38,561 nucleotides of DNA. Origin: a phage. Below are positions 2,461 through 31,933 of the stretch, piece after piece. Under the pieces are notes generated by a model. The model ran no database searches, was not told the origin of the DNA, and saw only the letters and a list, made by a program, of their open reading frames with translations. Location of the stretch: sequence record PZ344858.1, one strand, 5' to 3'. The stretch's first letter is position 1; the number at the start of each line of letters is the position of its first letter. Position numbers and translations under genes: made by a program.

Positions 2461-2687
2461 TTTATGCAGTAAGATTGCATAGGGATGCACTATAGGCCAC
2501 GGATGGTCAGTTCGTTAAGTTACTGAAAAGACACGAGGGACGAAAGGTTACTATATAGATACTGAATGAATACTTATAGAGTGCATAAAGTATGCATAGT
2601 AGTGTACCTAAAGTGACCTCTAAGAATGGTGATTATATTGTATTAATATCACCTTAACTTAAAGTCCAACATAAAGGGAGGAGACTC

Positions 2688-2837
2688 ATGTTCCGCTTAT
2701 TGTTGAACCTACTGCGGCATAGAGTCACCTACCGATTTCTTGTGGTACTTTGTGCTGCCCTTGGGTACGCATCGCTTAACGGAGACCTCAGTTCACTGGA
2801 GTCTACCGTTTGCTCTTTACTCACTTGTAGTGATTAA
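2688..2837 (+). CDS. 19.5: gp19.5-like small protein
   Basis: 49 aa ORF MFRLLLNLLRHRVTYRFLVVLCAALGYASLNGDLSSLESTVCSLLTCSD, RBS aagggagg; below the ORF-track length cut-off; matches T7 gp19.5 as recalled. Confidence 0.7.
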   Translation: MFRLLLNLLRHRVTYRFLVVLCAALGYASLNGDLSSLESTVCSLLTCSD

Positions 2838-3076
2838 GGTCTTCCTGACCGACTGACGGCTCACCGAGGGATTCAGCGGTATGATTGCATCACACCACTT
2901 CATCCCTATAGAGTCAAGTCCTAAGGTATGCCCATAAAGAGCCTCTAATGGTCTATCCTAAGGTCTATACCTAAAGATAGGCCATCCTATCAGTGTCACC
3001 TAAAGAGAGGCTTAGAGAGGGCCTAAGGAGTCCCTAGAGGGTCCTTTAAAATATACCATAAAAATCTGAGTGACTA

Positions 3077-6419: not shown

Positions 6420-9071
6420 ATGAGCACGATTAACATCGCTAAGAACGATTTCTCTGACATCGAACTGGCTGCTATCCCGTTCAATACTCTGGCTGACCAC
6501 TATGGTGAGCGCCTAGCTCGCGAGCAGTTGGCCCTTGAACATGAGTCTTACGAGATGGGCGAGGCACGTTTCCGCAAGATGTTTGAGCGTCAACTTAAGG
6601 CCGGTGAGGTTGCAGACAATGCGGCTGCTAAACCACTGATTACTACTCTGCTGCCTAAGATGGTTACACGCATCAACGACTGGTTTGAGGAAGTGAAGGC
6701 TAAGCGCGGCAAACGTCCAACCGCTTTCCAGTTCCTGCAAGGAATCAAGCCGGAATCTGTAGCGTATATCACCATCAAGACTACCCTTGCTTGTCTGACG
6801 AGCGTGGACAATACAACCGTTCAGGCTGTAGCAAGCGCCATCGGACGGGCTATCGAGGAAGAAGCTCGCTTCGGTCGAATCCGTGACCTAGAAGCTAAGC
6901 ACTTCAAGAAAAACGTTGAGGAACAACTCAATAAGCGCGTAGGGCATGTCTACAAGAAAGCATTCATGCAAGTAGTCGAGGCCGATATGCTCTCAAAGGG
7001 TCTACTCGGTGGCGAGGCGTGGTCTACATGGCACAAGGAAGACTCCATTCACGTAGGTGTGCGCTGCATTGAGATGCTCATTGAGTCAACCGGAATGGTT
7101 AGCTTGCACCGCCAAAATGCTGGCGTAGTGGGCCAAGACTCTGAGACTATCGAACTGGCACACGAATACGCTGAGGCTATCGCAACACGGGCTGGGGCAC
7201 TGGCGGGTATCTCTCCGATGTATCAGCCTTGCATAGTACCGCCTAAACCTTGGACTGGTGTAACTGGTGGCGGATACTGGGCTAACGGTCGCCGTCCGCT
7301 GGTACTGGTACGCACCCACAGCAAGAAGGCACTGATGCGCTACGAAGATGTTTACATGCCTGAGGTATACAAGGCGATCAACATTGCGCAAAACACCGCT
7401 TGGAAAATCAACAAGAAAGTCCTAGCGGTCGCCAACGTAATCACCAAGTGGAAGCACTGCCCGGTCGAGGACATCCCAGCGATTGAACGTGAAGAACTCC
7501 CGATGAAACCGGAAGACATCGACACGAATCCTGAGGCGCTCACCACTTGGAAACGTGCCGCTGCCGCTGTGTATCGTAAGGACAAGGCCCGTAAGTCTCG
7601 CCGCATAAGCCTTGAGTTCATGCTTGAGCAAGCCAATAAGTTTGCTAACCGTAAGGCCATCTGGTTCCCTTACAACATGGACTGGCGCGGTCGCGTGTAC
7701 GCTGTGTCAATGTTCAATCCGCAAGGTAACGACATGACCAAAGGACTGCTAACACTGGCTAAAGGTAAACCAATCGGCAAGGAAGGATTCTACTGGCTGA
7801 AAATCCACGGGGCAAACTGCGCGGGAGTTGATAAGGTTCCATTCCCTGAGCGCATCAAGTTCATTGAGGACAACCACGATAACATCATGGCGTGCGCTAA
7901 GTCCCCACTGGAGAACACTTGGTGGGCTGAGCAAGATTCTCCGTTCTGCTTCCTCGCGTTCTGCTTTGAGTACGCTGGGGTACAGCACCACGGCCTGAGC
8001 TACAACTGCTCGCTGCCATTGGCTTTCGATGGGTCTTGCTCCGGTATCCAGCACTTCTCCGCGATGCTCCGCGATGAGGTGGGTGGCCGTGCTGTTAACC
8101 TGCTGCCTAGCGAAACCGTTCAGGACATCTACGGGATTGTTGCCAAGAAAGTCAACGAGATTCTGCAAGCTGATGCAATCAACGGTACCGATAACGAAGT
8201 GATTACCGTGACCGATGAGAACACTGGTGAAATCTCTGAGAAAGTCAAGCTGGGCACTAAAGCACTGGCTGGTCAATGGTTGGCCTACGGTGTGACTCGT
8301 AGCGTAACTAAGCGTTCAGTCATGACTCTGGCCTATGGCTCCAAAGAGTTCGGCTTCCGCCAGCAAGTCCTTGAGGACACCATACAGCCAGCTATTGATT
8401 CAGGAAAAGGCCTGATGTTCACGCAACCGAATCAAGCTGCTGGGTATATGGCTAAGCTGATTTGGGAGTCAGTGAGTGTTACCGTAGTGGCTGCTGTAGA
8501 GGCCATGAACTGGCTTAAGTCTGCTGCTAAGCTGCTGGCTGCTGAGGTCAAAGATAAGAAGACTGGTGAGATTCTTCGCAAGCGTTGCGCAGTGTATTGG
8601 GTAACTCCTGATGGCTTCCCTGTGTGGCAAGAATACAAGAAGCCAATTCAGACTCGCTTGAACTTGATGTTCCTCGGTCAGTTCCGCTTACAGCCGACCA
8701 TCAACACCAACAAGGACAGCGAGATTGATGCTCATAAGCAGGAGTCTGGTATCGCTCCTAACTTTGTGCACAGCCAAGACGGTAGCCACCTACGTAAGAC
8801 TGTAGTGTGGGCGCACGAGAAGTACGGAATCGAATCTTTTGCACTGATTCATGACTCCTTCGGGACCATTCCGGCTGATGCTGCCAACCTATTCAAGGCT
8901 GTTCGTGAGACTATGGTTGACACCTACGAGTCCTGCGATGTACTTGCAGACTTCTACAACCAGTTCGCTGACCAGTTACATGAATCTCAACTGGATAAAA
9001 TGCCAGCACTTCCGGCTAAAGGTAACTTGAATTTACGAGACATCTTAGAGTCAGACTTCGCGTTTGCGTAA
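6420..9071 (+). CDS. 1: Single-subunit DNA-directed RNA polymerase (T7 gp1 homolog)
   Basis: 883 aa, the same length as T7 RNAP and near-identical along the whole protein as recalled. Confidence 0.98.
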   Translation: MSTINIAKNDFSDIELAAIPFNTLADHYGERLAREQLALEHESYEMGEARFRKMFERQLKAGEVADNAAAKPLITTLLPKMVTRINDWFEEVKAKRGKRPTAFQFLQGIKPESVAYITIKTTLACLTSVDNTTVQAVASAIGRAIEEEARFGRIRDLEAKHFKKNVEEQLNKRVGHVYKKAFMQVVEADMLSKGLLGGEAWSTWHKEDSIHVGVRCIEMLIESTGMVSLHRQNAGVVGQDSETIELAHEYAEAIATRAGALAGISPMYQPCIVPPKPWTGVTGGGYWANGRRPLVLVRTHSKKALMRYEDVYMPEVYKAINIAQNTAWKINKKVLAVANVITKWKHCPVEDIPAIEREELPMKPEDIDTNPEALTTWKRAAAAVYRKDKARKSRRISLEFMLEQANKFANRKAIWFPYNMDWRGRVYAVSMFNPQGNDMTKGLLTLAKGKPIGKEGFYWLKIHGANCAGVDKVPFPERIKFIEDNHDNIMACAKSPLENTWWAEQDSPFCFLAFCFEYAGVQHHGLSYNCSLPLAFDGSCSGIQHFSAMLRDEVGGRAVNLLPSETVQDIYGIVAKKVNEILQADAINGTDNEVITVTDENTGEISEKVKLGTKALAGQWLAYGVTRSVTKRSVMTLAYGSKEFGFRQQVLEDTIQPAIDSGKGLMFTQPNQAAGYMAKLIWESVSVTVVAAVEAMNWLKSAAKLLAAEVKDKKTGEILRKRCAVYWVTPDGFPVWQEYKKPIQTRLNLMFLGQFRLQPTINTNKDSEIDAHKQESGIAPNFVHSQDGSHLRKTVVWAHEKYGIESFALIHDSFGTIPADAANLFKAVRETMVDTYESCDVLADFYNQFADQLHESQLDKMPALPAKGNLNLRDILESDFAFA

Positions 9072-17135: not shown

Positions 17136-19292
17136 ATGATCGTTTCTGACATCGAAGCTAACGCCCTCTTAGAGAGCGTCACTAAGTTCCACTGCGGGGT
17201 TATCTACGACTACTCCACCGATGAGTACGTAAGCTACCGACCGAGTGACTTCGGTGCGTATCTGGATGCGCTGGAAGCCGAGGTTGCACGAGGCGGTCTT
17301 ATTGTGTTCCACAACGGTCACAAGTATGACGTTCCCGCATTGACCAAACTGGCAAAGCTACAATTGAACCGTGAGTTCCACCTACCCCGTGAGAACTGTA
17401 TTGACACACTTGTGTTGTCACGCTTGATTCACTCCAACCTGAAAGACACCGATATGGGTCTTCTGCGTTCCGGTAAGTTGCCTGGTAAACGCTTTGGGTC
17501 TCACGCTCTGGAGGCGTGGGGCTATCGCTTAGGTGAAATGAAAGGTGAATACAAGGATGACTTTAAGCATATGCTTGAAGAGCAAGGTGAAGAATACGTT
17601 GATGGCATGGAGTGGTGGAACTTCAACGAAGAGATGATGGCCTATAACGTTCAGGACGTTGTGGTCACTAAGGCTCTCCTTGAGAAGCTACTCTCTGACA
17701 AACATTACTTCCCTCCTGAGATTGACTTTACGGACGTAGGATACACTACGTTCTGGTCAGAATCCCTTGAGGCCGTTGACGTTGAACATCGCGCTGCATG
17801 GCTACTCGCTAAGCAAGAGCGCAATGGATTCCCGTTTGACACGAAAGCAATCGAAGAGTTGTACGTAGAGTTAGCTGCTCGTCGCTCTGAGTTGCTCCGC
17901 AAATTGACCGAAACGTTCGGCTCGTGGTATCAGCCTAAAGGTGGCACCGAAATGTTCTGCCACCCGAGGACTGGTAAGCCATTGCCTAAATATCCTCGCA
18001 TTAAGACACCTAAAGTTGGTGGCATCTTTAAGAAGCCTAAGAACAAGGCACAGAGAGAAGGCCGTGAGCCTTGCGAACTGGATACCCGCGAGTACGTTGC
18101 TGGTGCTCCTTATACGCCAGTTGAGCACGTAGTGTTTAACCCTTCGTCTCGTGACCACATCCAGAAGAAACTTCAAGAGGCTGGATGGGTCCCGACTAAG
18201 TACACCGATAAAGGTGCACCTGTGGTGGATGATGAGGTACTCGAAGGAGTAAAAGTAGATGACCCTGAGAAGCAAGCCGCTATCGACCTTATTAAAGAAT
18301 ACTTGATGATTCAGAAGAGAATCGGACAATCTGCTGAGGGAGACAAGGCATGGCTTCGTTACGTTGCTGAGGATGGTAAAATTCATGGTTCTGTTAACCC
18401 CAATGGTGCTGTTACTGGGCGCGCTACTCACGCTTTCCCTAACCTCGCACAGGTACCCGGTGTCCGCTCTCCTTATGGTGATCGGTGCCGCTCTGCTTTT
18501 GGCGCTGAACATCACCTAGATGGACTTACAGGTAAGCCTTGGGTTCAGGCTGGTATAGACGCCTCAGGTCTGGAGTTGCGCTGCTTGGCCCACTTCATGG
18601 CTCGATTTGACAACGGTGAGTATGCTCACGAGATTCTCAATGGCGATATTCACTGGAAGAACGCAATTGCTGCCGACTTAGCACCAAACGTTGCCCGTGA
18701 TAAACACAATAAGGAACACGACCTAATGCGTGATAACGCCAAGACGTTTATCTATGGGTTCCTCTATGGTGCTGGTGATGAGAAGACTGGTCAGATTGTA
18801 GGTGCTGGTAAAGAACGCGGTAAGGAACTCAAGAAGAAATTCCTTGAGAACACCCCAGCGATTGCCGCACTCCGAGAGTCTATCCAACAGGCTCTTGTTG
18901 AGTCCTCTCAGTGGGTAGCGGGTGAACAACAAGTCAAGTGGAAACGCCGCTGGATTAAAGGTCTGGATGGTCGTAAGGTACACGTTCGTAGTCCTCACGC
19001 TGCCTTGAATACCCTACTGCAATCTGCTGGTGCTCTCATCTGCAAACTGTGGATTATCAAGACCGAAGAGATGCTCGTAGAGAAAGGCTTGAAGCACGGC
19101 TGGGATGGGGACTTTGCGTACATGGCATGGGTACATGACGAAATCCAAGTAGGTTGCCGTACCGAAGAGATTGCTCAGGTGGTCATTGAGACCGCACAAG
19201 AAGCAATGCGCTGGGTTGGAGACCACTGGAACTTCCGGTGTCTTCTGGATACCGAAGGTAAGATTGGTCCTAATTGGGCGATTTGCCATTAA
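17136..19292 (+). CDS. 5: DNA polymerase with 3'-5' exonuclease (T7 gp5 homolog)
   Basis: 718 aa; family A polymerase motifs ([26 protein letters not shown]); near-identical to T7 gp5 except for a short insertion. Confidence 0.97.
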
Positions 19293-19305
19293 AGGAGGTA
19301 TACAA

Positions 19306-19662
19306 GTGGATTCGAAACACGTCACTGGTGCTGCGTCGGAACTACTTGTTGCCTACAAGTTTACCAAGGCTGGGTACACTGTGTATTACCCTATGCTTAC
19401 TCAAAGTAAAGAGGACTTAGTTGTATGTAAGGATGGTAAATTTAGTAAGGTGCAGGTTAAGACTGCGACAGCGTTAACTGTTGGCGGAAGTACGGCACAT
19501 CAAGTCAGACTAGGCGGTTGTGGTAGAGCGTCCTACAAGGATGGCGACTTTGACCTACTGGCTGCTGTGGTGGAAGATGAAGTCCTCCTGTACACATGGG
19601 AGGAAGTTAAAGGCAAGACCTCTATGTGCGTAGGTAAGCGCAACAAAGGCGTTAAACTATAG
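19306..19662 (+). CDS. 5.3: gp5.3-like protein
   Basis: 118 aa from a GTG start 7 nt after RBS aaaggagg; size matches T7 gp5.3 as recalled; the ORF-track version 19171-19662 overlaps the gene 5 3' end. Confidence 0.65.
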   Translation: MDSKHVTGAASELLVAYKFTKAGYTVYYPMLTQSKEDLVVCKDGKFSKVQVKTATALTVGGSTAHQVRLGGCGRASYKDGDFDLLAAVVEDEVLLYTWEEVKGKTSMCVGKRNKGVKL

Positions 19663-19673
19663 GAGAAATTATT

Positions 19674-19970
19674 ATGGCTATCACTAAGAAATTTAAAGTG
19701 TCCTTTGATGTTACCCTTAAGCTGGACAGCGAGACCGAGGAACTGATGCGAGAAAAGATTCTGGACTTAGCTCATCGTGCTGGCGCTGGTGAGGAGATTG
19801 CTCCTATGGACCGAGAGTTACTAGTCCAAGCTCTGACCCGTGGTCCAGACGGTGCTGCTGCATTTGCTGTACGACAAGGCATCCGTAATGCTGTCAAGGA
19901 GATGTTCGAAGAGTCTGGTGATAAATCACTGTTCAAACAATCTCCTGCAACTGTACGGGAGGTGTTCTGA
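19674..19970 (+). CDS. 5.5: gp5.5-like protein (binds host H-NS in T7)
   Basis: 98 aa, RBS aggag. Confidence 0.85.
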   Translation: MAITKKFKVSFDVTLKLDSETEELMREKILDLAHRAGAGEEIAPMDRELLVQALTRGPDGAAAFAVRQGIRNAVKEMFEESGDKSLFKQSPATVREVF

Positions 19971-20179
19971 TGTCTGACTACTTGAAAGTGCTGCAAGCAA
20001 TCAAAAGTTGCCCTAAGACTTTCCAGTCCAACTATGTACGGAACAATGCGAGCCTCGTAGCGGAGGCCGCTTCCCGTGGTCACATCTCATGTCTGACCAC
20101 AAGTGGACGAAACGGTGGTGCTTGGGAAATCACTGCTTCTGGTACTCGCTTTCTGAAACGAATGGGAGGATGTGTCTAA
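19970..20179 (+). CDS. 5.7: gp5.7-like protein
   Basis: 69 aa; start overlaps the 5.5 stop. Confidence 0.8.
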   Translation: MSDYLKVLQAIKSCPKTFQSNYVRNNASLVAEAASRGHISCLTTSGRNGGAWEITASGTRFLKRMGGCV

Positions 20180-20337
20180 TGGTACGTGACACTGTGACAA
20201 TTCCTCGTGATGCGTGGAACGATATGCAGGGTTATATTGATTCTCTGGAACGCGAGAACGATAGCCTTAAGAACCAACTTATGGAAGCTGACGAATACGT
20301 GGCTGAGCTAGAGGAGAAACTTAATGGCGCTTCTTGA
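20179..20337 (+). CDS. 5.9: gp5.9-like RecBCD inhibitor
   Basis: 52 aa MVRDTVTIPRDAWNDMQGYIDSLERENDSLKNQLMEADEYVAELEEKLNGAS; RBS gggagga; near-identical to T7 gp5.9 as recalled. Confidence 0.8.
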   Translation: MVRDTVTIPRDAWNDMQGYIDSLERENDSLKNQLMEADEYVAELEEKLNGAS

Positions 20338-21226
20338 CCTTAAACAGTTCTATGAGTTACGCGAAGGCTGTGACGACAAAGGTATCCTTGTGATGGATGG
20401 TGACTGGCTGGTCTTCCAAGCTATGAGTGCTGCTGAGTTTGATGCCTCATGGGAGGAAGAGATTTGGCACCGCTGCTGTGACCACGCTAAGGCACGTCAG
20501 ATTCTGGATGATTCCATCAAGTCCTATGAGACCCGTAAGAAGGCTTGGGTAGGCGCTCCGATTGTCCTTGCGTTCACAGATAGTGTCAACTGGCGTAAAG
20601 AATTGGTAGACCCTAACTACAAGGCTAACCGTAAGGCCACGAAGAAACCTGTAGGTTACTTTGAGTTCCTTGACGCTCTCTTTGAGCGCGAAGAGTTCTA
20701 CTGCATCCGCGAGCCTATGCTTGAGGGCGATGACGTTATGGGAGTGATTGCTTCCAATCCGTCTGCATTCGGTGCCCGTAAAGCTGTAATTATCTCGTGC
20801 GATAAGGACTTTAAGACCATCCCTAACTGTGACTTCCTGTGGTGTACCACTGGTAACATCCTGACTCAGACCGAAGAGTCCGCTGACTGGTGGCACCTAT
20901 TCCAGACAATCAAAGGTGACATTACCGATGGTTACTCAGGGATTGCTGGGTGGGGTGATACTGCCGAGGACTTCTTGAATAACCCGTTCATAACCGAGCC
21001 TAAAACGTCTGTGCTTAAGTCTGGGAAGAACAAAGGGCAAGAGGTTACTAAGTGGATTAAGCGCGACCCTGAGCCACATGAGACGCTCTGGGACTGTATT
21101 AAGTCCATTGGCGCTAAGGCTGGTATGACCGAAGAGGATGTTATCAAGCAGGGCCAGATGGCTCGCATCCTGCGGTTCAACGAGTACAACTTTATTGACA
21201 AGGAGATTTACCTGTGGAGACCGTAG
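20324..21226 (+). CDS. 6: 5'-3' exonuclease (T7 gp6 homolog)
   Basis: 300 aa, same length as T7 gp6. Confidence 0.95.
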   Translation: MALLDLKQFYELREGCDDKGILVMDGDWLVFQAMSAAEFDASWEEEIWHRCCDHAKARQILDDSIKSYETRKKAWVGAPIVLAFTDSVNWRKELVDPNYKANRKATKKPVGYFEFLDALFEREEFYCIREPMLEGDDVMGVIASNPSAFGARKAVIISCDKDFKTIPNCDFLWCTTGNILTQTEESADWWHLFQTIKGDITDGYSGIAGWGDTAEDFLNNPFITEPKTSVLKSGKNKGQEVTKWIKRDPEPHETLWDCIKSIGAKAGMTEEDVIKQGQMARILRFNEYNFIDKEIYLWRP

Positions 21227-21327
21227 CATATATTGGTATTGGCCTTTGTGTTATCGGAATGGGCCTCATTGCGTGGGGCCTTTGGGACTTAGCCCAAATA
21301 ATCAAGAAGATACACGACTATAAGTGA
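21214..21327 (+). CDS. 6.3: gp6.3-like small hydrophobic protein
   Basis: 37 aa from GTG with RBS aaggag 8 nt upstream: VETVAYIGIGLCVIGMGLIAWGLWDLAQIIKKIHDYK; size equals T7 gp6.3. Confidence 0.5.
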   Translation: METVAYIGIGLCVIGMGLIAWGLWDLAQIIKKIHDYK

Positions 21328-21365
21328 TAAACTCAAGGTCCAGGGGCCTTTATGATTATTACTTT
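21324..21365 (+). promoter_or_regulatory. RNase III-type processing hairpin (R6.5-like), without an associated T7 promoter
   Basis: gtgataaactcaaggtccaggggcctttatgattattacttt. Confidence 0.5.
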
Positions 21366-21394
21366 AAGATTTAACTCTAAGAGGAATCTTTATC

Positions 21395-21649
21395 ATGTTA
21401 ACACCTATTAACCAATTACTTAAGAACCCTAACGATATTCCAGATGTACCTCGTACAACTGCTGAGTATCTACAGGTTCGATTCAATTATGCGTATCTAG
21501 AAGCGTCTGGTCATATAGGACTTATGCGTGCTAATGGTTGTAGTGAAGCCCACATCTTGGGTTTCATTCAGGGCCTACAGTATGCCTCTAACGTCATTGA
21601 CGAGATTGAGTTACGCAAGGAACAACTAAGAGATGATGGGGAGGATTGA
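21395..21649 (+). CDS. 6.5: gp6.5-like protein
   Basis: 84 aa, RBS aagagga. Confidence 0.8.
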
Positions 21650-21653
21650 CCTT

Positions 21654-21920
21654 ATGTGTTTCTCACCGAAAGTTAAAGTTCCGAAGATGGATACCAATCA
21701 GGTTCGAGCCGTTGAGCCAGCACCCCTGACCCAAGAAGTCTCAGGTGTGGAGTTCGGTGGGTCTTCTGATGAGACGGATACCGAGGGCACCGAAGTGTCT
21801 GGACGCAAAGACCTCAAGGTCGAACGCGACGATTCCGTAGCGAAGTCTAAAGCCGCTGGTTCTGGCTCTGCTCGTATGAAATCTTCAATCCGTAAGTCTG
21901 CATTCGGAGGTAAGAAGTAA
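21654..21920 (+). CDS. 6.7: gp6.7-like virion protein
   Basis: 88 aa starting MCFSPKVKVPK with RBS ggggagga; ORF-track start at 21633 is an extension. Confidence 0.8.
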   Translation: MCFSPKVKVPKMDTNQVRAVEPAPLTQEVSGVEFGGSSDETDTEGTEVSGRKDLKVERDDSVAKSKAAGSGSARMKSSIRKSAFGGKK

Positions 21921-22321
21921 TGTCTGAGTTCACATGTGTGGAGGCGAAAAGTCGCTTCCGTGCAATCCAATGGACTGTAGAGCACCTTGGGTTGCCTAAA
22001 GGATTCGAAGGACACTTTATTGGCTACAGCCTCTACGTTGACGAAGTTATGGACACGTCTGGTTGCCACGAAGAGTACATTCTGGACTCTACTGGAAAAC
22101 ATGTAGCGTACTTCGCGTGGTGCGTAAGCTGTGACATTCACCATAAAGGTGACATTCTGGATGTAACGTCCGTTGTCATTAACCCTGAGGCAGACTCTAA
22201 AGGCTTACAGCGATTCCTTGCGAAACGCTTTAAGTGCCTTGCAGAACTCCATGATTGCGATTGGGTGTCCCGCTGCAAACACGAAGGCGAGACAATGCGT
22301 ATATACTTTAAGGAGGTATAA
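21920..22321 (+). CDS. 7: gp7-like host-specificity protein
   Basis: 133 aa, same length as T7 gp7. Confidence 0.85.
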   Translation: MSEFTCVEAKSRFRAIQWTVEHLGLPKGFEGHFIGYSLYVDEVMDTSGCHEEYILDSTGKHVAYFAWCVSCDIHHKGDILDVTSVVINPEADSKGLQRFLAKRFKCLAELHDCDWVSRCKHEGETMRIYFKEV

Positions 22322-22324
22322 GTT

Positions 22325-22630
22325 ATGGGTAAGAAAATTAAGAAGGCCGTGAAGAAAGTCACTAAGTCCGTTAAGAAAGTCGTTAAGGAAGTGGCTCGTC
22401 CGGTTAAACAGGTTGCCAGCGGTCTGGCTGGTGGTGCTGGTGAGGCACAGGTAGTGGAAGTGCCACAAGCTGCCGCTGCTACTCCTGCTGCACAGATTGT
22501 TGACGTACCTGAGAAAGAGGTTTCCACTGAGGATGAAGCACAGACCGAAAGCGGACGTAAGAAAGCCCGTGCTGGCGGTAAGAAGTCATTAAGTGTGGCT
22601 CGTAGCTCCGGTGGCGGCATCAATATTTGA
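22325..22630 (+). CDS. 7.3: gp7.3-like tail/adsorption protein
   Basis: 101 aa, lysine/alanine-rich, RBS aaggaggt. Confidence 0.85.
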   Translation: MGKKIKKAVKKVTKSVKKVVKEVARPVKQVASGLAGGAGEAQVVEVPQAAAATPAAQIVDVPEKEVSTEDEAQTESGRKKARAGGKKSLSVARSSGGGINI

Positions 22631-22644
22631 TCAGGAGGTGACAC

Positions 22645-24261
22645 ATGGCTGAGAAGCGTACAGGTCTAGCCGAGGAAGGTGCTAAGTCGGTCTATGAACG
22701 ATTGAAGAACGACCGTGCCCCGTATGAGACTCGTGCTCAAAACTGCGCTCAGTACACCATTCCGTCCCTCTTCCCTAAGGACTCCGATAACGCATCTACA
22801 GACTACACAACTCCGTGGCAAGCTGTGGGTGCTCGCGGTCTCAATAACTTGGCCTCTAAGCTCATGCTGGCTCTCTTCCCTATGCAAACGTGGATGAAAC
22901 TGACCATCTCTGAGTTTGAGGCCAAACAGTTACTGGATGACCCCGATGGACTCGCTAAGGTTGATGAGGGCCTCTCAATGGTAGAGCGCATCATCATGAA
23001 CTACATTGAGTCTAACAGCTACCGAGTGACTCTCTTCGAGGCTCTCAAGCAGTTAGTCGTTGCTGGCAACGTCCTGCTGTACCTACCGGAACCAGAAGGG
23101 TCGAACTATAATCCCATGAAGCTGTACCGATTGTCTTCTTATGTGGTCCAACGAGACGCATTCGGCAACGTTCTGCAAATGGTGACTCGCGACCAGATAG
23201 CTTTCGGAGCACTCCCTGAGGATGTCCGTAAGGCTGTAGAAGGTCAAGGTGGTGAGAAGAAACCTGATGAGACCATTGATGTGTACACTCACGTCTATCT
23301 GGATGAAGAATCAGGGGAGTATCTCCGCTACGAAGAGGTTGAGGGTATGGAGGTCCAAGGCTCAGACGGGTCTTACCCTAAAGAGGCTTGTCCATACATC
23401 CCGATTCGAATGGTTCGACTCGACGGTGAATCCTACGGTCGTTCGTACATTGAGGAATACTTAGGTGACTTACGGTCCCTTGAGAATCTCCAAGAGGCTA
23501 TCGTCAAGATGTCCATGATTAGCTCTAAGGTTATCGGCTTAGTGAATCCTGCTGGTATCACCCAGCCACGCCGACTGACCAAAGCTCAGACTGGTGACTT
23601 CGTTACTGGTCGTCCAGAAGACATCTCATTCCTACAACTGGAGAAGCAAGCAGACTTTACTGTAGCTAAAGCCGTAAGTGACGCTATTGAGGCTCGCCTT
23701 TCGTTTGCCTTCATGTTGAACTCTGCGGTTCAGCGCACTGGTGAACGTGTGACCGCCGAAGAGATTCGGTACGTTGCGTCAGAACTTGAAGATACTTTAG
23801 GTGGTGTCTACTCTATCCTTTCTCAAGAATTACAATTGCCTCTGGTACGAGTGCTCTTGAAGCAACTACAAGCCACGCAACAGATTCCTGAGTTACCTAA
23901 GGAAGCCGTAGAGCCAACTATTAGTACAGGTCTGGAAGCAATCGGTCGTGGTCAAGACCTTGATAAGCTGGAACGCTGTGTCTCTGCATGGGCTGCTCTG
24001 GCCCCTATGCGCGATGACCCAGACATCAACCTTGCGATGATTAAGTTACGCATTGCTAACGCTATCGGTATTGACACTTCTGGCATCCTTCTTACCGAAG
24101 AGCAGAAGCAACAGAAGATGGCTCAACAGTCTGTTCAAATGGGTATGGATAATGGCGCTGCTGCGCTTGGTCAAGGTATGGCTGCACAGGCTACGGCTTC
24201 ACCTGAGGCTATGGCTGCTGCCGCTGATTCCGTTGGTTTACAGCCGGTCCAGATTGAGTGA
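22645..24261 (+). CDS. 8: Head-to-tail connector (portal) protein (T7 gp8 homolog)
   Basis: 538 aa, RBS aggaggt; follows 7.3 directly with no gene 7.7. Confidence 0.97.
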   Translation: MAEKRTGLAEEGAKSVYERLKNDRAPYETRAQNCAQYTIPSLFPKDSDNASTDYTTPWQAVGARGLNNLASKLMLALFPMQTWMKLTISEFEAKQLLDDPDGLAKVDEGLSMVERIIMNYIESNSYRVTLFEALKQLVVAGNVLLYLPEPEGSNYNPMKLYRLSSYVVQRDAFGNVLQMVTRDQIAFGALPEDVRKAVEGQGGEKKPDETIDVYTHVYLDEESGEYLRYEEVEGMEVQGSDGSYPKEACPYIPIRMVRLDGESYGRSYIEEYLGDLRSLENLQEAIVKMSMISSKVIGLVNPAGITQPRRLTKAQTGDFVTGRPEDISFLQLEKQADFTVAKAVSDAIEARLSFAFMLNSAVQRTGERVTAEEIRYVASELEDTLGGVYSILSQELQLPLVRVLLKQLQATQQIPELPKEAVEPTISTGLEAIGRGQDLDKLERCVSAWAALAPMRDDPDINLAMIKLRIANAIGIDTSGILLTEEQKQQKMAQQSVQMGMDNGAAALGQGMAAQATASPEAMAAAADSVGLQPVQIE

Positions 24262-24329
24262 GGTCTGGTCTCAAGGTTCGAGTCCTTGGGTGTCCCTTAG
24301 TTCTTTAAATTGGAATGGAGATAACAATA

Positions 24330-25253
24330 ATGGCTGAATCTAATGCTGATGTATATGCGTCCTTCGGCGTAAACTCCGCTGTGATGTCTGGTGGTTCCGT
24401 TGAGGAACACGAGCAGAATATGCTGGCTCTGGATGTTGCTGCCCGTGATGGCGATGATGCAATCGAGTTAGCGTCCGACGAAGATGAAACTGAACGTGAC
24501 CTGTATGACAACTCTGACCCGTTCGGTCAAGAGGACGATGAGGGCCGTATTCAGGTTCGCATTGGTGATGGTTCTGAGCCGACTGATGTGGACACTGGGG
24601 AAGAAGGTTTTGATGGCACAGAAGGTTCCGAAGAGTTTACCCCACTGGGTGAGACTCCAGAAGAACTGGTAGCTGCCTCTGAGCAACTTGGTGAGCACGA
24701 AGAGGGCTTCCAAGAGATGATTAACATTGCTGCCGAGCGTGGCATGAGTGCTGAGACCATTGAGGCAATCCAGCGTGAGTACGAGGAGAACGAAGAGCTA
24801 TCCGCTGCATCCTACGCTAAGCTGGCTGAAATTGGTTACACTAAGGCTTTCATCGACTCATACATCCGTGGTCAAGAAGCTCTGGTGGAGCAGTACGTAA
24901 ACAGTGTAGTTGAGTATGCTGGCGGTCGTGAGCGTTTTGATGCGCTGTACAATCACCTTGAGACTCACAACCCTGAGGCTGCACAATCGCTGGACAATGC
25001 GCTGACCAATCGCGACTTAGCGACCGTTAAGGCTATCATTAACTTGGCTGGCGAGTCTCGTGCTAAGGCGTTCGGTCGTAAGCCCACTCGTAGTGTAACC
25101 AGTCGAGCTATTCCGGCTAAACCTCAAGCGACTAAGCGTGAAGGCTTTGCTGACCGTAGCGAGATGATTAAGGCTATGAGTGACCCTCGGTATCGCACCG
25201 ATGCAAACTATCGTCGTCAAGTCGAACAGAAAGTGATCGACTCTAACTTCTGA
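24330..25253 (+). CDS. 9: Capsid assembly (scaffolding) protein (T7 gp9 homolog)
   Basis: 307 aa from MAESNADVYASFGV with RBS ggag 9 nt upstream; highly acidic; ORF-track start at 24315 has no RBS. Confidence 0.9.
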   Translation: MAESNADVYASFGVNSAVMSGGSVEEHEQNMLALDVAARDGDDAIELASDEDETERDLYDNSDPFGQEDDEGRIQVRIGDGSEPTDVDTGEEGFDGTEGSEEFTPLGETPEELVAASEQLGEHEEGFQEMINIAAERGMSAETIEAIQREYEENEELSAASYAKLAEIGYTKAFIDSYIRGQEALVEQYVNSVVEYAGGRERFDALYNHLETHNPEAAQSLDNALTNRDLATVKAIINLAGESRAKAFGRKPTRSVTSRAIPAKPQATKREGFADRSEMIKAMSDPRYRTDANYRRQVEQKVIDSNF

Positions 25254-25256
25254 TAG

Positions 25257-25526
25257 ACTCTCGCTGGCACCTCTCGCTCGGATGCTACCGGTCAGAAGCA
25301 CGCCTTCCCGGCTACTAAGAGCGGTACTGACAAGGTTGCTAAGGACAACGTTATCGGCCTGTTCATGCACCGCTCTGCGGTAGGTACTGTTAAGCTGCGT
25401 GACTTGGCTCTGGAACGTGCTCGCCGTGCTAACTTCCAAGCGGACCAGATTATCGCGAAGTACGCAATGGGCCACGGTGGTCTGCGTCCAGAAGCTGCTG
25501 GTGCTGTGGTTTTCACGGCAGCGTAA
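25257..25526 (+). pseudogene. 10: Remnant of the major capsid protein gene (3' end of T7 gene 10A homolog), without start codon, RBS or promoter
   Basis: In-frame translation ...TGQKHAFPATKSGTDKVAKDNVIGLFMHRSAVGTVKLRDLALERARRANFQADQIIAKYAMGHGGLRPEAAGAVVFTAA* matches the C-terminal part of T7 gp10A as recalled; preceded by TGA TAG. Confidence 0.8.
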
Positions 25527-25637
25527 TGCTGAAAGTGGCCTCAACGGTCGCTGCTAGTCCCGAAGAGGTGAGCATTACTACCGAAGAGAGTCTAACTCCA
25601 GCACAGAAAGCTGCACGCACACGCGCGCTCATACGAT

Positions 25638-26213
25638 ATGAACGTTGAGACTGCCGCTGAGTTATCCGCTGTGAACGACATTCTGGCATCTATCGGTGAA
25701 CCTCCGGTATCAACGCTGGAAGGTGACGCTAACGCAGATGTAGCGAACGCTCGGCGCATTCTCAATAAGATTAACCGACAGATTCAGTCTCGTGGCTGGA
25801 CGTTCAACATTGAGGAAGGCATAACGCTATTACCTGATGTTTACTCCAACCTGATTGTGTACAGCGATGACTATTTGTCACTAATGGCTACTTCCGGTCA
25901 ATCAGTCTATGTTAATCGAGGTGGCTATGTGTATGACCGAACGAGTCAATCTGACCGCTTTGAGTCTGGTATCACTGTTAACATTATCCGTCTACGAGAC
26001 TACGATGAGATGCCTGAGTGCTTCCGATACTGGATTGTCACTAAGGCTTCCCGTCAGTTCAACAACCGATTCTTTGGGGCACCAGAAGTAGAGGGTGTAC
26101 TACAAGAAGAGGAGGATGAGGCTCGACGTCTCTGTATGGAGTACGAAGTGGATTATGGCGGTTATAACATGCTGGATGGTGACGCGTTCACTTCTGGTCT
26201 ACTGACTCGCTAA
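25638..26213 (+). CDS. 11: Tail tubular protein A (T7 gp11 homolog), starting at an internal methionine relative to T7
   Basis: 191 aa [23 protein letters not shown]...; T7 gp11 begins MRSYDMNVE as recalled; no Shine-Dalgarno sequence upstream here. Confidence 0.85.
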
Positions 26214-26233
26214 TAAGCATTAAGGAGGCTCTA

Positions 26234-28621
26234 ATGGCACTCATTAGCCAATCAATTAAGAACTTGAAGGGTGGTATCAGTCAACAGCCTGACATCCTTC
26301 GTTATCCAGACCAAGGGTCACGCCAAGTTAACGGTTGGTCTTCGGAGACCGAGGGCCTCCAAAAGCGTCCACCAATGGTTTTCCTTAAGACACTTGGAGA
26401 CAACGGTGCTCTAGGTCAAGCTCCGTACATCCACCTGATTAACCGTGATGAGAACGAACAGTATTACGCTGTGTTCACTGGTACAGGAATCCGAGTGTTT
26501 GACCTTGCCGGTAACGAAAAACAGGTACGATACCCAACAGATGGTGCTTCGTACATCACCACTTCAAACCCAAGGAACGACTTGAGGATGGTAACTGTGG
26601 CTGACTATACGTTCATCGTTAACAGAAACGTAAGGGTAGCACGTAATGCCAACTCTGTCAACCTTCCTGGGTTTAACCCTAAGAAAGATGCGTTAATCAA
26701 CGTTCGTGGTGGTCAGTACGGTAGAACCCTCCAGATTCAGATTAATGGGGGCACTCAGGCCAGCTATCAGATTCCAGATGGTTCACAACCCGCACACGTA
26801 AACAATACGGACGCTCAGTGGTTAGCTGAGGAGCTGGCCAGACAACTAAGGGCAAACACTCCCGGATGGACATTCAACGTGGGTCAAGGCTTTATCCACA
26901 TCATAGCAGATGCTGCCGGTGAGATTAACTCTTTGGTTACTAAGGATGGTTATGCAGACCAGTTGATTAACCCTGTAACACACTACGCCCAGTCATTCTC
27001 CAAGCTGCCACCTAACGCACCTGATGGGTACATGGTGAAAATCGTAGGAGATGCCTCAAAGTCCGCTGACCAATATTACGTTCGCTATGACGCACAGCGT
27101 AAGGTCTGGGTTGAGACACTAGGTTGGAACGTCACGAACCAACTTCTGTACGAGACTATGCCGCACGCGCTGGTTCGCGCTTCTGATGGTAACTTTGAGT
27201 TCAGGTGGCTTGAGTGGGTTCCAAAGACATGCGGTGACGATGATACCAACCCGTGGCCTTCCTTCATGGACTCCACAATCAACGATGTGTTCTTCTTCCG
27301 TAACCGTTTAGGTTTCCTAAGTGGAGAGAATATCATCTTGAGTAGAACCGCTAAATACTTCAACTTCTACCCAGCGTCAATCGCGAACTTGAGTGATGAT
27401 GATCCTATTGATGTGGCTGTAAGTACCAACAGAATAGCAATCCTTAAGTATGCCGTGCCATTCTCTGAGGAGTTGCTCATCTGGTCCGATGAAGCGCAGT
27501 TCGTCCTGACTGCTTCCGGTACTCTCACGTCGAAGTCAGTTGAGTTGAACCTAACGACTCAGTTTGATGTGCAGGACCGAGCGAGGCCGTTCGGGATTGG
27601 TCGTAACGTTTACTTTGCGAGTCCGAGGTCCAGCTTTACGTCCATCCATCGGTATTACGCCGTTCAGGATGTAAGTTCCGTTAAGAACGCTGAGGACATT
27701 ACGGCTCACGTTCCGAACTATATACCTAATGGTGTGTACAGTATCTGCGGGTCGGGTACTGAGAACTTCTGTTCGGTACTATCCCATGGGGACCCTAGCA
27801 AAATCTTCATGTACAAATTCCTGTACCTTAACGAAGAGTTGAGGCAACAGTCGTGGTCTCACTGGGACTTTGGGGAAAACGTGCAGGTTTTGGCATGTCA
27901 GAGCATCAACTCAGATATGTTCATCATTCTACGTAACGAGTTTAACACGTTCCTTGCAAGAGTTTCCTTTACGAAGAACGCCATTGACTTACAGGGAGAA
28001 CCTTATCGGGCCTTTATGGACATGAAGATTCGCTACACGATTCCAAGCGGAACGTATAACGATGATACCTATGAGACGTCCATCCATATTCCAACTATTT
28101 ATGGTGCAAACTTCGGGAGGGGCAAAATCACTGTACTTGAACCTGATGGTAAGATCACAGTGTTTGAGCAACCTCAGGCTGGCTGGAGTAGTGACCCTTG
28201 GCTGAGACTCAATGGTAACTTAGAGGGACGCATGGTGTACATCGGGTTCAACATCAACTTCGTCTATGAGTTCTCTAAGTTCCTCATCAAACAAACTGCC
28301 GACGATGGGTCTACCTCCACGGAAGACATTGGTCGCTTGCAGTTACGCCGAGCGTGGGTGAACTATGAGAACTCTGGGACGTTCGACATTTATGTTGAGA
28401 ACCAATCGTCCAGCTGGAAGTACACAATGGCTGGTGCCCGACTAGGCTCTAGCACCCTGAGGGCCGGTAGACTGAACTTAGGGACCGGACAATACCGATT
28501 CCCTGTGGTGGGCAACGCCAAGTTCAATACCGTGTCCATCTTGTCCGATGAGACTACCCCGTTGAACATCATTGGTTGTGGCTGGGAAGGTAACTACTTA
28601 CGGAGAAGTTCCGGTATTTAA
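26234..28621 (+). CDS. 12: Tail tubular protein B (T7 gp12 homolog)
   Basis: 795 aa, RBS aaggagg. Confidence 0.95.
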   Translation: MALISQSIKNLKGGISQQPDILRYPDQGSRQVNGWSSETEGLQKRPPMVFLKTLGDNGALGQAPYIHLINRDENEQYYAVFTGTGIRVFDLAGNEKQVRYPTDGASYITTSNPRNDLRMVTVADYTFIVNRNVRVARNANSVNLPGFNPKKDALINVRGGQYGRTLQIQINGGTQASYQIPDGSQPAHVNNTDAQWLAEELARQLRANTPGWTFNVGQGFIHIIADAAGEINSLVTKDGYADQLINPVTHYAQSFSKLPPNAPDGYMVKIVGDASKSADQYYVRYDAQRKVWVETLGWNVTNQLLYETMPHALVRASDGNFEFRWLEWVPKTCGDDDTNPWPSFMDSTINDVFFFRNRLGFLSGENIILSRTAKYFNFYPASIANLSDDDPIDVAVSTNRIAILKYAVPFSEELLIWSDEAQFVLTASGTLTSKSVELNLTTQFDVQDRARPFGIGRNVYFASPRSSFTSIHRYYAVQDVSSVKNAEDITAHVPNYIPNGVYSICGSGTENFCSVLSHGDPSKIFMYKFLYLNEELRQQSWSHWDFGENVQVLACQSINSDMFIILRNEFNTFLARVSFTKNAIDLQGEPYRAFMDMKIRYTIPSGTYNDDTYETSIHIPTIYGANFGRGKITVLEPDGKITVFEQPQAGWSSDPWLRLNGNLEGRMVYIGFNINFVYEFSKFLIKQTADDGSTSTEDIGRLQLRRAWVNYENSGTFDIYVENQSSSWKYTMAGARLGSSTLRAGRLNLGTGQYRFPVVGNAKFNTVSILSDETTPLNIIGCGWEGNYLRRSSGI

Positions 28622-28671
28622 TACATAATGTTCTCCCTGTGGTGTCAATACGACTACGGGAGGGTTTTCTT

Positions 28672-29088
28672 ATGATGATTATAAGACCTACTAAAAGTAC
28701 AGACTTTGAGGTATTCACTCCGGCTCACCATGACATTCTTGAAGCTAAGGCTGCTGGTATTGAGCCAAGTTTCCCAGATGCTTCCGAGTGTGTCACGTTG
28801 AGCCTCTATGGGTTCCCTCTAGCCATTGGTGGTAACTGTGGGGACCAGTGCTGGTTCGTTACGAGCGACCAAGTGTGGAGACTTAGTGGAAAAGCTAAGC
28901 GAGAGTTCCGCAAGTTAATCATGGAGTATCGCGATAAGATGCTTGAGAAGTATGATACTCTTTGGAATTACGTGTGGGTAGGCAATGCGTCTCACATTCG
29001 TTTCCTCAAGACTATCGGTGCGGTATTCCATGAAGAGTACACACGCGATGGTCAATTTCAATTATTCACAATAACGAAAGGAGGATAA
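28672..29088 (+). CDS. 13: Internal virion protein A (T7 gp13 homolog)
   Basis: 138 aa starting MMIIRPTKSTDF with RBS gggaggg; ORF-track start at 28639 is an extension. Confidence 0.85.
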   Translation: MMIIRPTKSTDFEVFTPAHHDILEAKAAGIEPSFPDASECVTLSLYGFPLAIGGNCGDQCWFVTSDQVWRLSGKAKREFRKLIMEYRDKMLEKYDTLWNYVWVGNASHIRFLKTIGAVFHEEYTRDGQFQLFTITKGG

Positions 29089-29092
29089 CCAT

Positions 29093-29683
29093 ATGTGCTG
29101 GGCAGCTGCAATTCCAATCGCAATAGCTGGCGCTCAGGCTATCGGCAGTCAGAATGCTCAAGCGAAAGCGATAGCGTCTCAGACCGCCGCTGGTCGTCGT
29201 CAAGCCTTTGAACTTATGAAGCAGACGAACATCCAGAATGCTGACCTATCGTTGCAAGCTCGAAGTAAACTTGAGGAAGCGTCCTCTGAGTTGACCTCAC
29301 AGAACATGCAGAAGGTACAAGCTATGGGGTCTATCCGAGCGGCTATCGGAGAAAGTATGCTTGAAGGTTCCTCAATGGACCGCATTAAGCGAGTCACTGA
29401 GGGCCAGTTCATTCGGGAGGCCAACATGGTCACGGAGAACTACCGTAGAGACTACCAAGCAATCTTCGCACAGCAACTTGGTGGCACTCAAAGTGCTGCA
29501 AGTCAGATTGATGAAATCTACAAGGGCGAACAGAAACAGAAGAGTAAGCTACAGATGGTTCTTGACCCACTGGCTATCATGGGGTCATCTGCTGCTAGTG
29601 CTTATGCGTCTGGGGCGTTCGACTCTAAGCCAACCACTAAGGCACCTATTGTTGCCGCTAAAGGAACTAAGACGGGGAGGTAA
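29093..29683 (+). CDS. 14: Internal virion protein B (T7 gp14 homolog)
   Basis: 196 aa, RBS aaaggagg. Confidence 0.9.
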   Translation: MCWAAAIPIAIAGAQAIGSQNAQAKAIASQTAAGRRQAFELMKQTNIQNADLSLQARSKLEEASSELTSQNMQKVQAMGSIRAAIGESMLEGSSMDRIKRVTEGQFIREANMVTENYRRDYQAIFAQQLGGTQSAASQIDEIYKGEQKQKSKLQMVLDPLAIMGSSAASAYASGAFDSKPTTKAPIVAAKGTKTGR

Positions 29684-29689
29684 TATTAT

Positions 29690-31933
29690 ATGAGCAAGAT
29701 TGAATCTGCCCTTCAAGCAGCACAACCGGGACTCTCTCGGTTACGTAGTGGCGCTGGTGGTATGGGCTACAGGGCCGCCTCAACGCAAGCTGAGCAGCCT
29801 AAGTCCAGCCTATTGGACACCATTGGTCGGTTCGCTCAGGCTGGAGCCGATATGTATACCGCTAAGGAACAACGTGCTCGTGACCTAGCCGATGAACGCT
29901 CTAACGAGATTATTCGTAAGCTGACCCCTGAGCAACGTCGAGAGGCTCTCAACAACGGGACCCTTCTGTATCAGGATGACCCATACGCTATGGAAGCACT
30001 ACGAGTCAAGACTGGTCGTAACGCTGCGTACCTAGTTGATGATGACGTTATGCAGAAGGTTAAAGAGGGTGTCTTCCGTACTCGTGAAGAGATGGAACAG
30101 TATCGCCATAGCCGTCTTCAAGAGGGTGCTAAAGCATACGCTGAGCAGTTCGGTATTGACCCTGAGGACGTGGATTATCAGCGTGGTTTCAACGGGGACA
30201 TCACTGAGCGTAACATCTCACTATATGGAGCACATGATAACTTCTTGAGTCAACAAGCTCAGAAGGGTGCCATCATGAATAGCCGAGTGGAACTTAACGG
30301 TGTCCTTCAAGACCCTGATATGCTTCGCCTCCCAGACTCTGCTGACTTCTTTGAGAAGTACATCGACAATGGTCTGGTTACTGGGGCAATCCCATCTGAT
30401 GCTCAAGCCACACAGCTTATAAGCCAAGCGTTCAGTGACGCTTCTAGCCGTGCTGGTGGTGCTGACTTCCTGATGCGAGTCGGTGACAAGAAGGTAACAC
30501 TTAACGGAGCCACGACGACTTACCGAGAGTTGATGGGTGAAGAACAATGGAATGCTCTTATGGTAACAGCACAACGTTCTCAATTTGAGAATGACGCTAA
30601 GCTGAACGAGCAGTATCGCTTGAAGATTAACTCTGCGCTGAACCAAGAGGACCCTCGTACTGCGTGGGAGATGCTTCAAGGTATCAAGGCTGAACTCGAT
30701 AAGGTTCAACCTGATGAGCAGATGACACCGCAACGTGAGTGGCTAATCTCGGCACAGGAACAAGTCCAGAATCAGATGAACGCATGGACGAAGGCTCAAG
30801 CCAAAGCTCTGGATGACTCAATGAAGTCTATGAACAAACTTAACGTAATCGACAAGCAATTCCAGAAGCGAATCAATGGTGAGTGGGTCTCAACGGACTT
30901 TAAGGATATGCCAGTCAACGAGAACACTGGTGAGTTCAAGCATAGTGATATGGTTAACTACGCCAATAAGAAGCTCGCTGAGATTGACCGCATGGACATC
31001 CCAGATAGCGCCAAGGACATGCTGAAGTTGAAATACCTTCAAGCGGACTCTAAGGACGGGGCATTCCGCACAGCAATCGGAACTATGGTGACTGACGCTG
31101 CTCAAGAGTGGTCTGCCGCTGTTATTAACGGTAAGTTACCAGAACGAACCCCAGCTCTGGATGCTCTACGTAGAATACGTAATGCCGACCCTCAGTTGAT
31201 TGCTGCGCTATACCCAGACCAAGCTGAGTTATTTCTGACGATGGACATGATGGACAAGCAAGGTCTTGACCCTCAGCTTATTCTTGATGCCGACAGACTG
31301 GCTGTTAAGCGGTCCAAAGAGCAACGCTTTGAGGATGATAAAGCATTCGAGTCTGCACTGAACGCATCTAAGGCTCCTGAGATTGCCCGTATGCCAGCGT
31401 CACTGCGCGAATCTGCACGTAAGATTTATGACTCCGTTAAGTATCGCTCAGGGAACGAAAGTATGGCTATGGAGCAGATGACCAAGTTCCTTAAGGAATC
31501 TACCTACACGTTCACTGGTGATGATGTTGATGGTGATACCATTGGTGTGATTCCGAAGAACATGATGCAAGTCAACTCTGACCCGAAATCATGGGAGCAA
31601 GGTCGGGATATTCTGGAGGAAGCACGTAAGGGAATCATAGCGAACAACAAGTGGATTACCAATAAGCAACTGACTATGTATTCTCAAGGTGATTCCATTT
31701 ACCTTATGGATACCACTGGTCAAGTGCGAATCCGGTATGACAAAGAGCTGCTCGCTAAGGTCTGGAGTGAGAACCAGAAGAAACTTGAAGAGAAAGCACG
31801 CGAGGAGGCATTGAAGGATGCCAACAAGCGAGCACCTATCACTGCTGCTACTAAGGCCCGTGAAGCTGGAGCTAAGCGAGTACGGGATAAACGTAAACAG
31901 GTTCCTAAGTTCATCTATGGACGTAAGGAGTAA
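29690..31933 (+). CDS. 15: Internal virion (core) protein C (T7 gp15 homolog)
   Basis: 747 aa, same length as T7 gp15. Confidence 0.95.
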   Translation: MSKIESALQAAQPGLSRLRSGAGGMGYRAASTQAEQPKSSLLDTIGRFAQAGADMYTAKEQRARDLADERSNEIIRKLTPEQRREALNNGTLLYQDDPYAMEALRVKTGRNAAYLVDDDVMQKVKEGVFRTREEMEQYRHSRLQEGAKAYAEQFGIDPEDVDYQRGFNGDITERNISLYGAHDNFLSQQAQKGAIMNSRVELNGVLQDPDMLRLPDSADFFEKYIDNGLVTGAIPSDAQATQLISQAFSDASSRAGGADFLMRVGDKKVTLNGATTTYRELMGEEQWNALMVTAQRSQFENDAKLNEQYRLKINSALNQEDPRTAWEMLQGIKAELDKVQPDEQMTPQREWLISAQEQVQNQMNAWTKAQAKALDDSMKSMNKLNVIDKQFQKRINGEWVSTDFKDMPVNENTGEFKHSDMVNYANKKLAEIDRMDIPDSAKDMLKLKYLQADSKDGAFRTAIGTMVTDAAQEWSAAVINGKLPERTPALDALRRIRNADPQLIAALYPDQAELFLTMDMMDKQGLDPQLILDADRLAVKRSKEQRFEDDKAFESALNASKAPEIARMPASLRESARKIYDSVKYRSGNESMAMEQMTKFLKESTYTFTGDDVDGDTIGVIPKNMMQVNSDPKSWEQGRDILEEARKGIIANNKWITNKQLTMYSQGDSIYLMDTTGQVRIRYDKELLAKVWSENQKKLEEKAREEALKDANKRAPITAATKAREAGAKRVRDKRKQVPKFIYGRKE

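Follow-up and report, generated by a model that had tools for sequence, protein, structure and literature searches.

The DNA polymerase encoded by the phage genome PZ344858.1 is 14 residues longer than that of T7, and these residues probably represent the long, W-type form of the N-O connector of the fingers, a self-contained structural variant that has been kept as an old, recombining polymorphism. Gene 5 and the features mapped within it lie on the plus strand of the window, by which we mean the complete stretch of 38,561 nucleotides that was analysed. Gene 5 (17136-19292) was delineated from its open reading frame, Pfam matches, alignment with T7, and an AF2 model compared through Foldseek, and its 718-residue product is a T7-like family A DNA polymerase (Pfam PF00476) of the class termed cluster 5 / cd08643 (Czernecki et al. 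2023, PMC10201439). Searching all PDB chains with phmmer aligned the protein end to end with T7 gp5 (6n7w_H, 704 residues), and the Pfam DNA_pol_A model was matched at E=9.8e-47 (160 bits, cut-off 34.3). The RNase_H_2 Pfam match covers residues 5-92, and residues D5, E7, D65 and D174 of the N-terminal 3'-5' exonuclease are conserved in the alignments, as are the motif A aspartate D475 (DASGLELR) and motif C (H667-D668-E669), both invariant or nearly so. Motif B (R-x3-K-x3-Y-G) is likewise kept, with Tyr at the ddNTP-discrimination position; its O-helix residues R532, K536 and Y540 (18729-18755) occupy invariant alignment columns and are unchanged from T7 R518, K522 and Y526. The dNTP ligands of T7, numbered H506, R518, K522, Y526 and Y530 after Doublie et al. 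1998, all have conserved equivalents (H506, R532, K536, Y540 and Y544). At the level of sequence, the thumb thioredoxin-binding insertion (T7 262-338) shows no difference from T7 in the phmmer alignment, and the approximately 15 other positions outside the extra block at which the two polymerases differ are scattered, none falling in the thioredoxin-binding domain.

An exact-sequence look-up in a collection of 15 billion sequences returned no match to the gp5 protein. The identical 718-residue architecture, including the connector, is already present in deposited genomes, where it is annotated simply as DNA polymerase, and the connector polymorphism was not described in any paper found by our literature search.

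A previous sequence-only reading had drawn attention to the length of gp5, 718 residues against 704 in T7, and this difference was confirmed by the open reading frame and the full-length alignment. The whole excess corresponds to one in-frame block of 42 nucleotides (14 codons) directly before the O-helix Arg, seen as a single gap in which gp5 residues 517-530 lack a T7 counterpart between T7 P516 and T517. The block is read directly from the alignment and is not a statistical signal, and it raises no question of chance. Placement of the block, which spans 18681-18725 overall, is ambiguous by a few nucleotides, with MAFFT alignment of the DNA assigning it to 18681-18722 and HMMER to 18684-18725; in the former alignment it is present in phage CICC 80001 and absent from T7 and Bas103. 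The same reading had located the extra residues within 18670-18730, just upstream of a conserved motif. Both points held: the block lies inside that range and abuts R532, the peptide quoted is exact, and alignment with T7 places the length difference at this one site, in a segment that T7 lacks. The affected region is slightly wider, in that a DNA alignment of nine Teseptimavirus polymerase genes confines all fixed differences between long and short alleles to a patch at 18654-18728, running from W507 to M531 and constituting the long W-type connector. Besides the 42 nucleotides, this patch includes the substitutions T507W, Q510A and E514D and the replacement of P516-T517 by L530-M531. Its landmarks are the codons of the conserved dNTP phosphate ligand H506 and of W507, the hallmark of the long module and Thr in T7 (18651-18656), of R521-D522 (18696-18701), and of H528 (18717-18719), four residues before the O-helix Arg. 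A further codon, that of T551 in helix O1 (18786-18788; Ile in T7, I537), co-varies with the long module.

To place this variant among its relatives, we compared the segment between the DIH and AKTFIYG motifs in the 120 best homologues, all from Studiervirinae and at least 79% identical to gp5. Just two forms were found: a short form of 14 residues (DIHT[KV]NQxAAELPTRDN) in 115 proteins, and a long form of 28 residues (DIHWxNAxAADLAPxVxRDKxxxEHxxMRDN) in the remaining five, namely those of Klebsiella phage vB_KpnP_cmc356ctg1 and Enterobacter phage NJ2 and three metagenomic proteins (four recognized by sequence pattern, with P0012 added by alignment). A blastn search with an 84-nucleotide query comprising most of the patch (18652-18735) showed 41 deposited phage genomes to carry the long allele, approximately 34 of them KP32-group Klebsiella phages, while vB_Yep_9, Yanou, CICC 80001, EG1 and 'Enterococcus' phage EFA-2 matched the query at 92-98% identity. 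The last of these (MT350293.1) is a T7-like phage with a long connector and a polymerase gene 91% identical to that of PZ344858.1, and its Enterococcus host label looks doubtful.

A wider survey, in which 1.84 billion representatives were scanned in full with HMMER, yielded relatives 40-58% identical to gp5, which clustering at 50% identity reduced to 127 representatives. Among these, 75 possess a short connector (HTxNQxAAGLPTRDxAK) and 32 (~25%) a W-type long connector of 28-40 residues (HWxNxxAxGLxPx(G)TxRDKxNxxHxxxRxxAK); the other 20 comprise a third type of approximately 28 residues (HSxNxRALGxxPKxxYxVxGKxxxGRDIAK) together with other forms. The third type, unrelated in sequence to the W-type, accounts for about 15% of T7-like PolA representatives (P0141, P0142, P0167, P0218 and others in our labelling) and may fold as a hairpin. 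The W-type can be summarized by the signature H-W-x-N-x-x-A-x-G/D-L-x-P-x-(G)-T/V-x-R-D-K-x-N-x-x-H-x-x-x-R-x-x-A-K, and the gp5 of PZ344858.1 belongs to it, with W507, a connector of 29 residues against a defining range of 28-31, R521-D522 and H528. In the 38 W-type modules collected, R521 is conserved in 31, D522 in 32 and H528 in 37; the Trp following the His occurs in all 38 by definition of the type, and is always coupled to a long connector. Because the W-type is spread across diverse T7-like PolAs as well as deposited phages, PZ344858.1 carries a common and ancient connector module as opposed to a novelty. The strict conservation of H528, R521 and D522 at only 40% overall identity shows that this module is under constraint, and argues for a role beyond filling space.

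These distributions also bear on whether the block might be a recent, lineage-specific insertion, whether produced by tandem duplication, left as a scar by a mobile element, or created artificially during assembly or sequencing. The 8-nucleotide direct repeat CGTGATAA does occur twice, 33 nucleotides apart, within and beside the block, and in relatives this polymerase gene is interrupted by a group I intron containing an HNH gene. The two repeat copies, however, are unrelated beyond the 8-mer, and approximately 0.3 such repeats are expected by chance per 200 nucleotides; the intron of the relatives is situated some 460 nucleotides downstream, at polymerase nucleotide 2001/2002; and the block itself is in frame, with its sequence kept in several genera and in relatives only 40-58% identical. 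A recent origin is consequently extremely improbable, and is in effect refuted by the distribution. As regards its individual variants, a tandem duplication was rejected, the 8-nucleotide repeat being all that was found and compatible with chance; an artefact was ruled out by conservation of the block across genera; and an intron, homing-endonuclease or intein insert was dismissed given a block of 42 nucleotides that is in frame and translated, and an intron site that lies elsewhere. The term "insertion relative to T7" used in the sequence-only reading is accordingly sound as a description but does not extend to a new insertion, the long form being ancient among distantly related PolAs.

Two neighbouring features were recorded alongside this analysis. 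In Bas103 (2460-3060) the polymerase gene contains a 601-nucleotide insert with an HNH endonuclease gene, beside the HDE motif and equivalent to PZ344858.1 position 19136/19137. This insert corresponds to the group I intron already known from T7-like phages, which PZ344858.1 lacks, and matches in three pieces point to polymerase-gene inserts of approximately 600 nucleotides in Bas103, Bas104, HZP2, pO111, vB_YenP_WX2 and vB_Yep_15. Directly downstream of the polymerase, a gene 5.3 homologue is located at 19303-19662 (Pfam PDDEXK_5, PD-(D/E)XK endonuclease, E=1.5e-10). The same slot is empty in CICC 80001, WW2 and Yanou, and is occupied by an HNH endonuclease in vB_Yep_9 and by a 65-residue open reading frame in EG1. 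A link between connector type and gene 5.3 was considered and rejected, since PZ344858.1 and T7 both possess the gene yet carry different alleles, and CICC 80001 and Yanou carry the long allele without it.

Comparisons among close relatives revealed that the connector is exchanged by recombination. Every protein with the long allele can be paired with a short-allele neighbour to which, outside the patch, it is 97-98% identical, the pairs being PZ344858.1/T7, P0004/P0035, P0013/P0097 and P0012/P0117. Across the nine Teseptimavirus genes, sliding identity between PZ344858.1 and short-allele phages drops to 73-86% only around the patch, where long-allele phages are at 91-98%. When the upstream flank (18480-18580) and the patch are considered jointly, all four combinations are present among the nine: PZ344858.1, CICC 80001, Yep_9 and EG1 combine flank A and the long patch, in WW2 and HZ2R8 flank A is joined to the short patch, Yanou has flank B and the long patch, and T7 has flank B and the short patch. 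Recombination must therefore have occurred within approximately 100 nucleotides of the patch. The DNA encoding GDIH on one side of the patch and a 16-residue stretch on the other is almost invariant, and could serve as recombination anchors. WW2 and HZ2R8, the best whole-genome relatives of PZ344858.1, carry the short allele, and across the family W-type connectors are scattered among lineages whose nearest relatives have the short type. The polymerase gene as a whole is finely mosaic, its closest partners changing from block to block; over 18336-18580, for example, T7 and Yanou are 78-88% identical to PZ344858.1 and CICC 80001, Yep_9, EG1 and WW2 94-99%. Differences within long/short pairs also cluster in part at residues 440-600, around the patch, which may reflect exchanged tracts longer than the patch itself, or further co-adaptation. 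With respect to the direction of change, the connector of Bst Pol I is close in length to the long form, making the short connector of T7 the outlier relative to Pol I; judged from such sequence comparisons, derivation of the T7 short form appears at least as likely as derivation of the long form.

We next consider the potential structural consequences of the module. An AF2 model of gp5 built from an alignment of 85 diverse sequences reached a pLDDT of 93.5 and a pTM of 0.89, with residues 501-540 at 94-96; a model based on a shallow alignment, restricted to identities of 80% or more (pLDDT 60), was discarded in its favour. Foldseek superposed the model on T7 gp5 structures with TM scores of 0.91-0.96. 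DSSP assigned a helix at 505-512, an ordered non-helical loop at 513-525, and a helix at 526-543 that includes H528. Relative to T7, with T517 taken as the first residue of helix O, the additional 14 residues are thus predicted to provide approximately nine more loop residues and a helix O that starts some six residues earlier. Mutual information over the whole protein revealed no convincing co-variation with the connector outside the module except at residue 551, which is Thr in all six long-allele Studiervirinae proteins and Ile in 107 of 115 short-allele ones. Family-wide, a small residue occupies this position in 13 of 33 long-type proteins versus 4 of 52 others (Fisher p=6e-4), a pattern that fits volume compensation for the bulk of W507. 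At T7 position 514, which is situated at the back of the fingers, a coumarin amino acid is tolerated and can be used to follow the closure of the fingers that nucleotide induces (PMC7857513).

From these features we propose that the module represents a self-contained structural variant, situated where the back and tip of the mobile fingers are exposed to solvent. W507 would pack against the extension, with the Ile-to-Thr change at 551 in helix O1 offsetting its bulk, and H528, one helical turn before R532, would either brace the N/O hairpin or border the path of nucleotide entry at its outer end. Such a module may at most tune fingers dynamics or dNTP/PPi traffic, and would leave catalysis and thioredoxin-dependent processivity as in T7. 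The polymorphism would be old and persistent, with homologous recombination in the highly conserved DNA on either side continuing to shuffle the module. The long connector is accordingly expected to have little functional effect.

With regard to processivity, which the sequence-only reading had suggested might be affected, an influence is unlikely because neither the catalytic residues nor the thioredoxin-binding domain are altered; connector type is also independent of how long the thumb insertion is, a long insertion being present in some and absent from other enzymes of either connector type. An effect on nucleotide selection, also raised at that stage, is conceivable given that the block is next to R532 (T7 R518) in helix O. 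The extension might then take part in nucleotide handling, with H528, and possibly R521, lining the outer dNTP entry or PPi exit path, such that the long connector alters Km, PPi release or substrate discrimination. H528, which precedes R532 by four positions (i-4) within one uninterrupted predicted helix, would share a face with R532, K536 and Y540, and this geometry, like its near invariance, is what such a role would call for. The canonical ligands are unchanged, however, and the short type works without H528 or R521; we therefore regard direct participation in nucleotide handling as unlikely.

The persistence of discrete alleles across lineages, and their recombination as a small cassette, could alternatively reflect a connector surface that faces a partner or an inhibitor, such as the gp4 helicase or a phage or host factor (e.g. 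a defence protein or polymerase-binding inhibitor), with long and short modules altering the docking of the fingers on it and the polymorphism kept by balancing or diversifying selection. Variable positions of the insert do evolve faster, at approximately 75% identity versus a protein average of 84% between PZ344858.1 and P0003, and one model of the T7 replisome places the fingers domain (residues 472-584) in contact with a subunit of the gp4 helicase (bioRxiv 10.64898/2026.05.20.726333). The accessible text gives no residue-level contact of region 507-517. R521, D522 and H528 moreover look structural or catalytic-side as opposed to diversifying, and our literature search found no defence system tied to the N-O connector region. 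A partner-facing role is thus quite unlikely. A more specific version, to which we give very little credence, holds that the N-O connector is a swappable cassette kept polymorphic by selection, its short, W-type and hairpin-like types setting sensitivity to a fingers-binding factor of the host or a rival phage, or tuning helicase coupling; were this true, phages would swap connectors by recombination to escape or adapt.

The genomic setting of the polymerase gene was also surveyed. PZ344858.1 represents a distinct Teseptimavirus, with a best genome-wide match of ~94% (vB_YenP_WW2 and HZ2R8), and is circularly permuted with respect to the T7 map, with terminase gp19 at 688-2460, RNA polymerase at 6420-9071 and tail fibre gp17 at 35961-37637. 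Gene 10, encoding the major capsid protein, is mostly missing (25254-25640): the gene 9 open reading frame ends at 25253, gene 11 starts near 25620-25638, and only codons ~256-345 remain between them, at 25262-25526. A second copy of gene 10 was not found elsewhere in PZ344858.1. Relative to EG1, 852 nucleotides are absent, comprising the phi10 promoter, the ribosome-binding site and gene 10 codons 1-256. The same deletion, again with no other capsid gene, is seen in vB_Yep_9 (PV596790.1), which is ~92% identical over 31.9 kb and collinear across the junction in a single 11.4-kb segment (19882-31246). The missing span coincides with the phi10 promoter and gene 10 (codons 1-260) fragment of the pET-3x, pET-17xb and pGEMEX vectors, and because of this match automated trimming of supposed vector contamination is a plausible origin of the gap. 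If the deletion is instead real, it would imply a defective or helper-dependent phage.

Taken together, these findings describe the polymerase of PZ344858.1 as an ordinary T7-type enzyme whose connector variant is already represented in GenBank genomes. Of possible interest to polymerase enzymologists are the three discrete and ancient types of connector located beside the O helix, and the exchange of so small a patch between close relatives. Since the E514 reporter of T7 gp5, a kinetic model enzyme, lies two residues from the block, the natural module swap would offer an easy probe of how the fingers tip affects closure.

Among known polymerases, T7 gp5 (PDB 1T7P, 2AJQ and 6N7W) shares with the PZ344858.1 enzyme its domain order, thioredoxin-binding domain and catalytic residues, and is 97-98% identical outside the patch; it differs in its short connector, HTKNQIAAELPTRDNAK, which counts 15 residues between His and Lys compared with 29, and in carrying I537 where PZ344858.1 has T551. 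The Teseptimavirus polymerases of CICC 80001 and EG1 (Escherichia), vB_Yep_9 (Yersinia) and Yanou (Cedecea) have the same long connector and a length of 718 residues, and are 94-98% identical to the patch query, with a nucleotide difference of 4-7%, mosaic in distribution, over the rest of the gene. More divergent are the polymerases of the Klebsiella KP32 group (K5, KP32 isolate 195 and vB_KpnP_cmc356ctg1) and Enterobacter phage NJ2, at 82-84% overall identity, in which the W-type module is present with APxVxRDKxxxEHxxM conserved, and approximately a quarter of the insert positions differ from PZ344858.1. Beyond phages, the N-O connector of bacterial Pol I occupies the same position and is comparable in length to the long form. 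The enzymes are nevertheless distinct in detail: Bst Pol I, at an overall identity of ~17-18%, has no Trp after the catalytic His (a residue not known at this position in Taq or Klenow either) and carries Thr instead of His at -4 from the Arg. When aligned with the long form, its connector, DIHTKTAMDIFQVSEDEVTPNMRRQAK, requires only six gap positions, and V, D and M-R are common to both.
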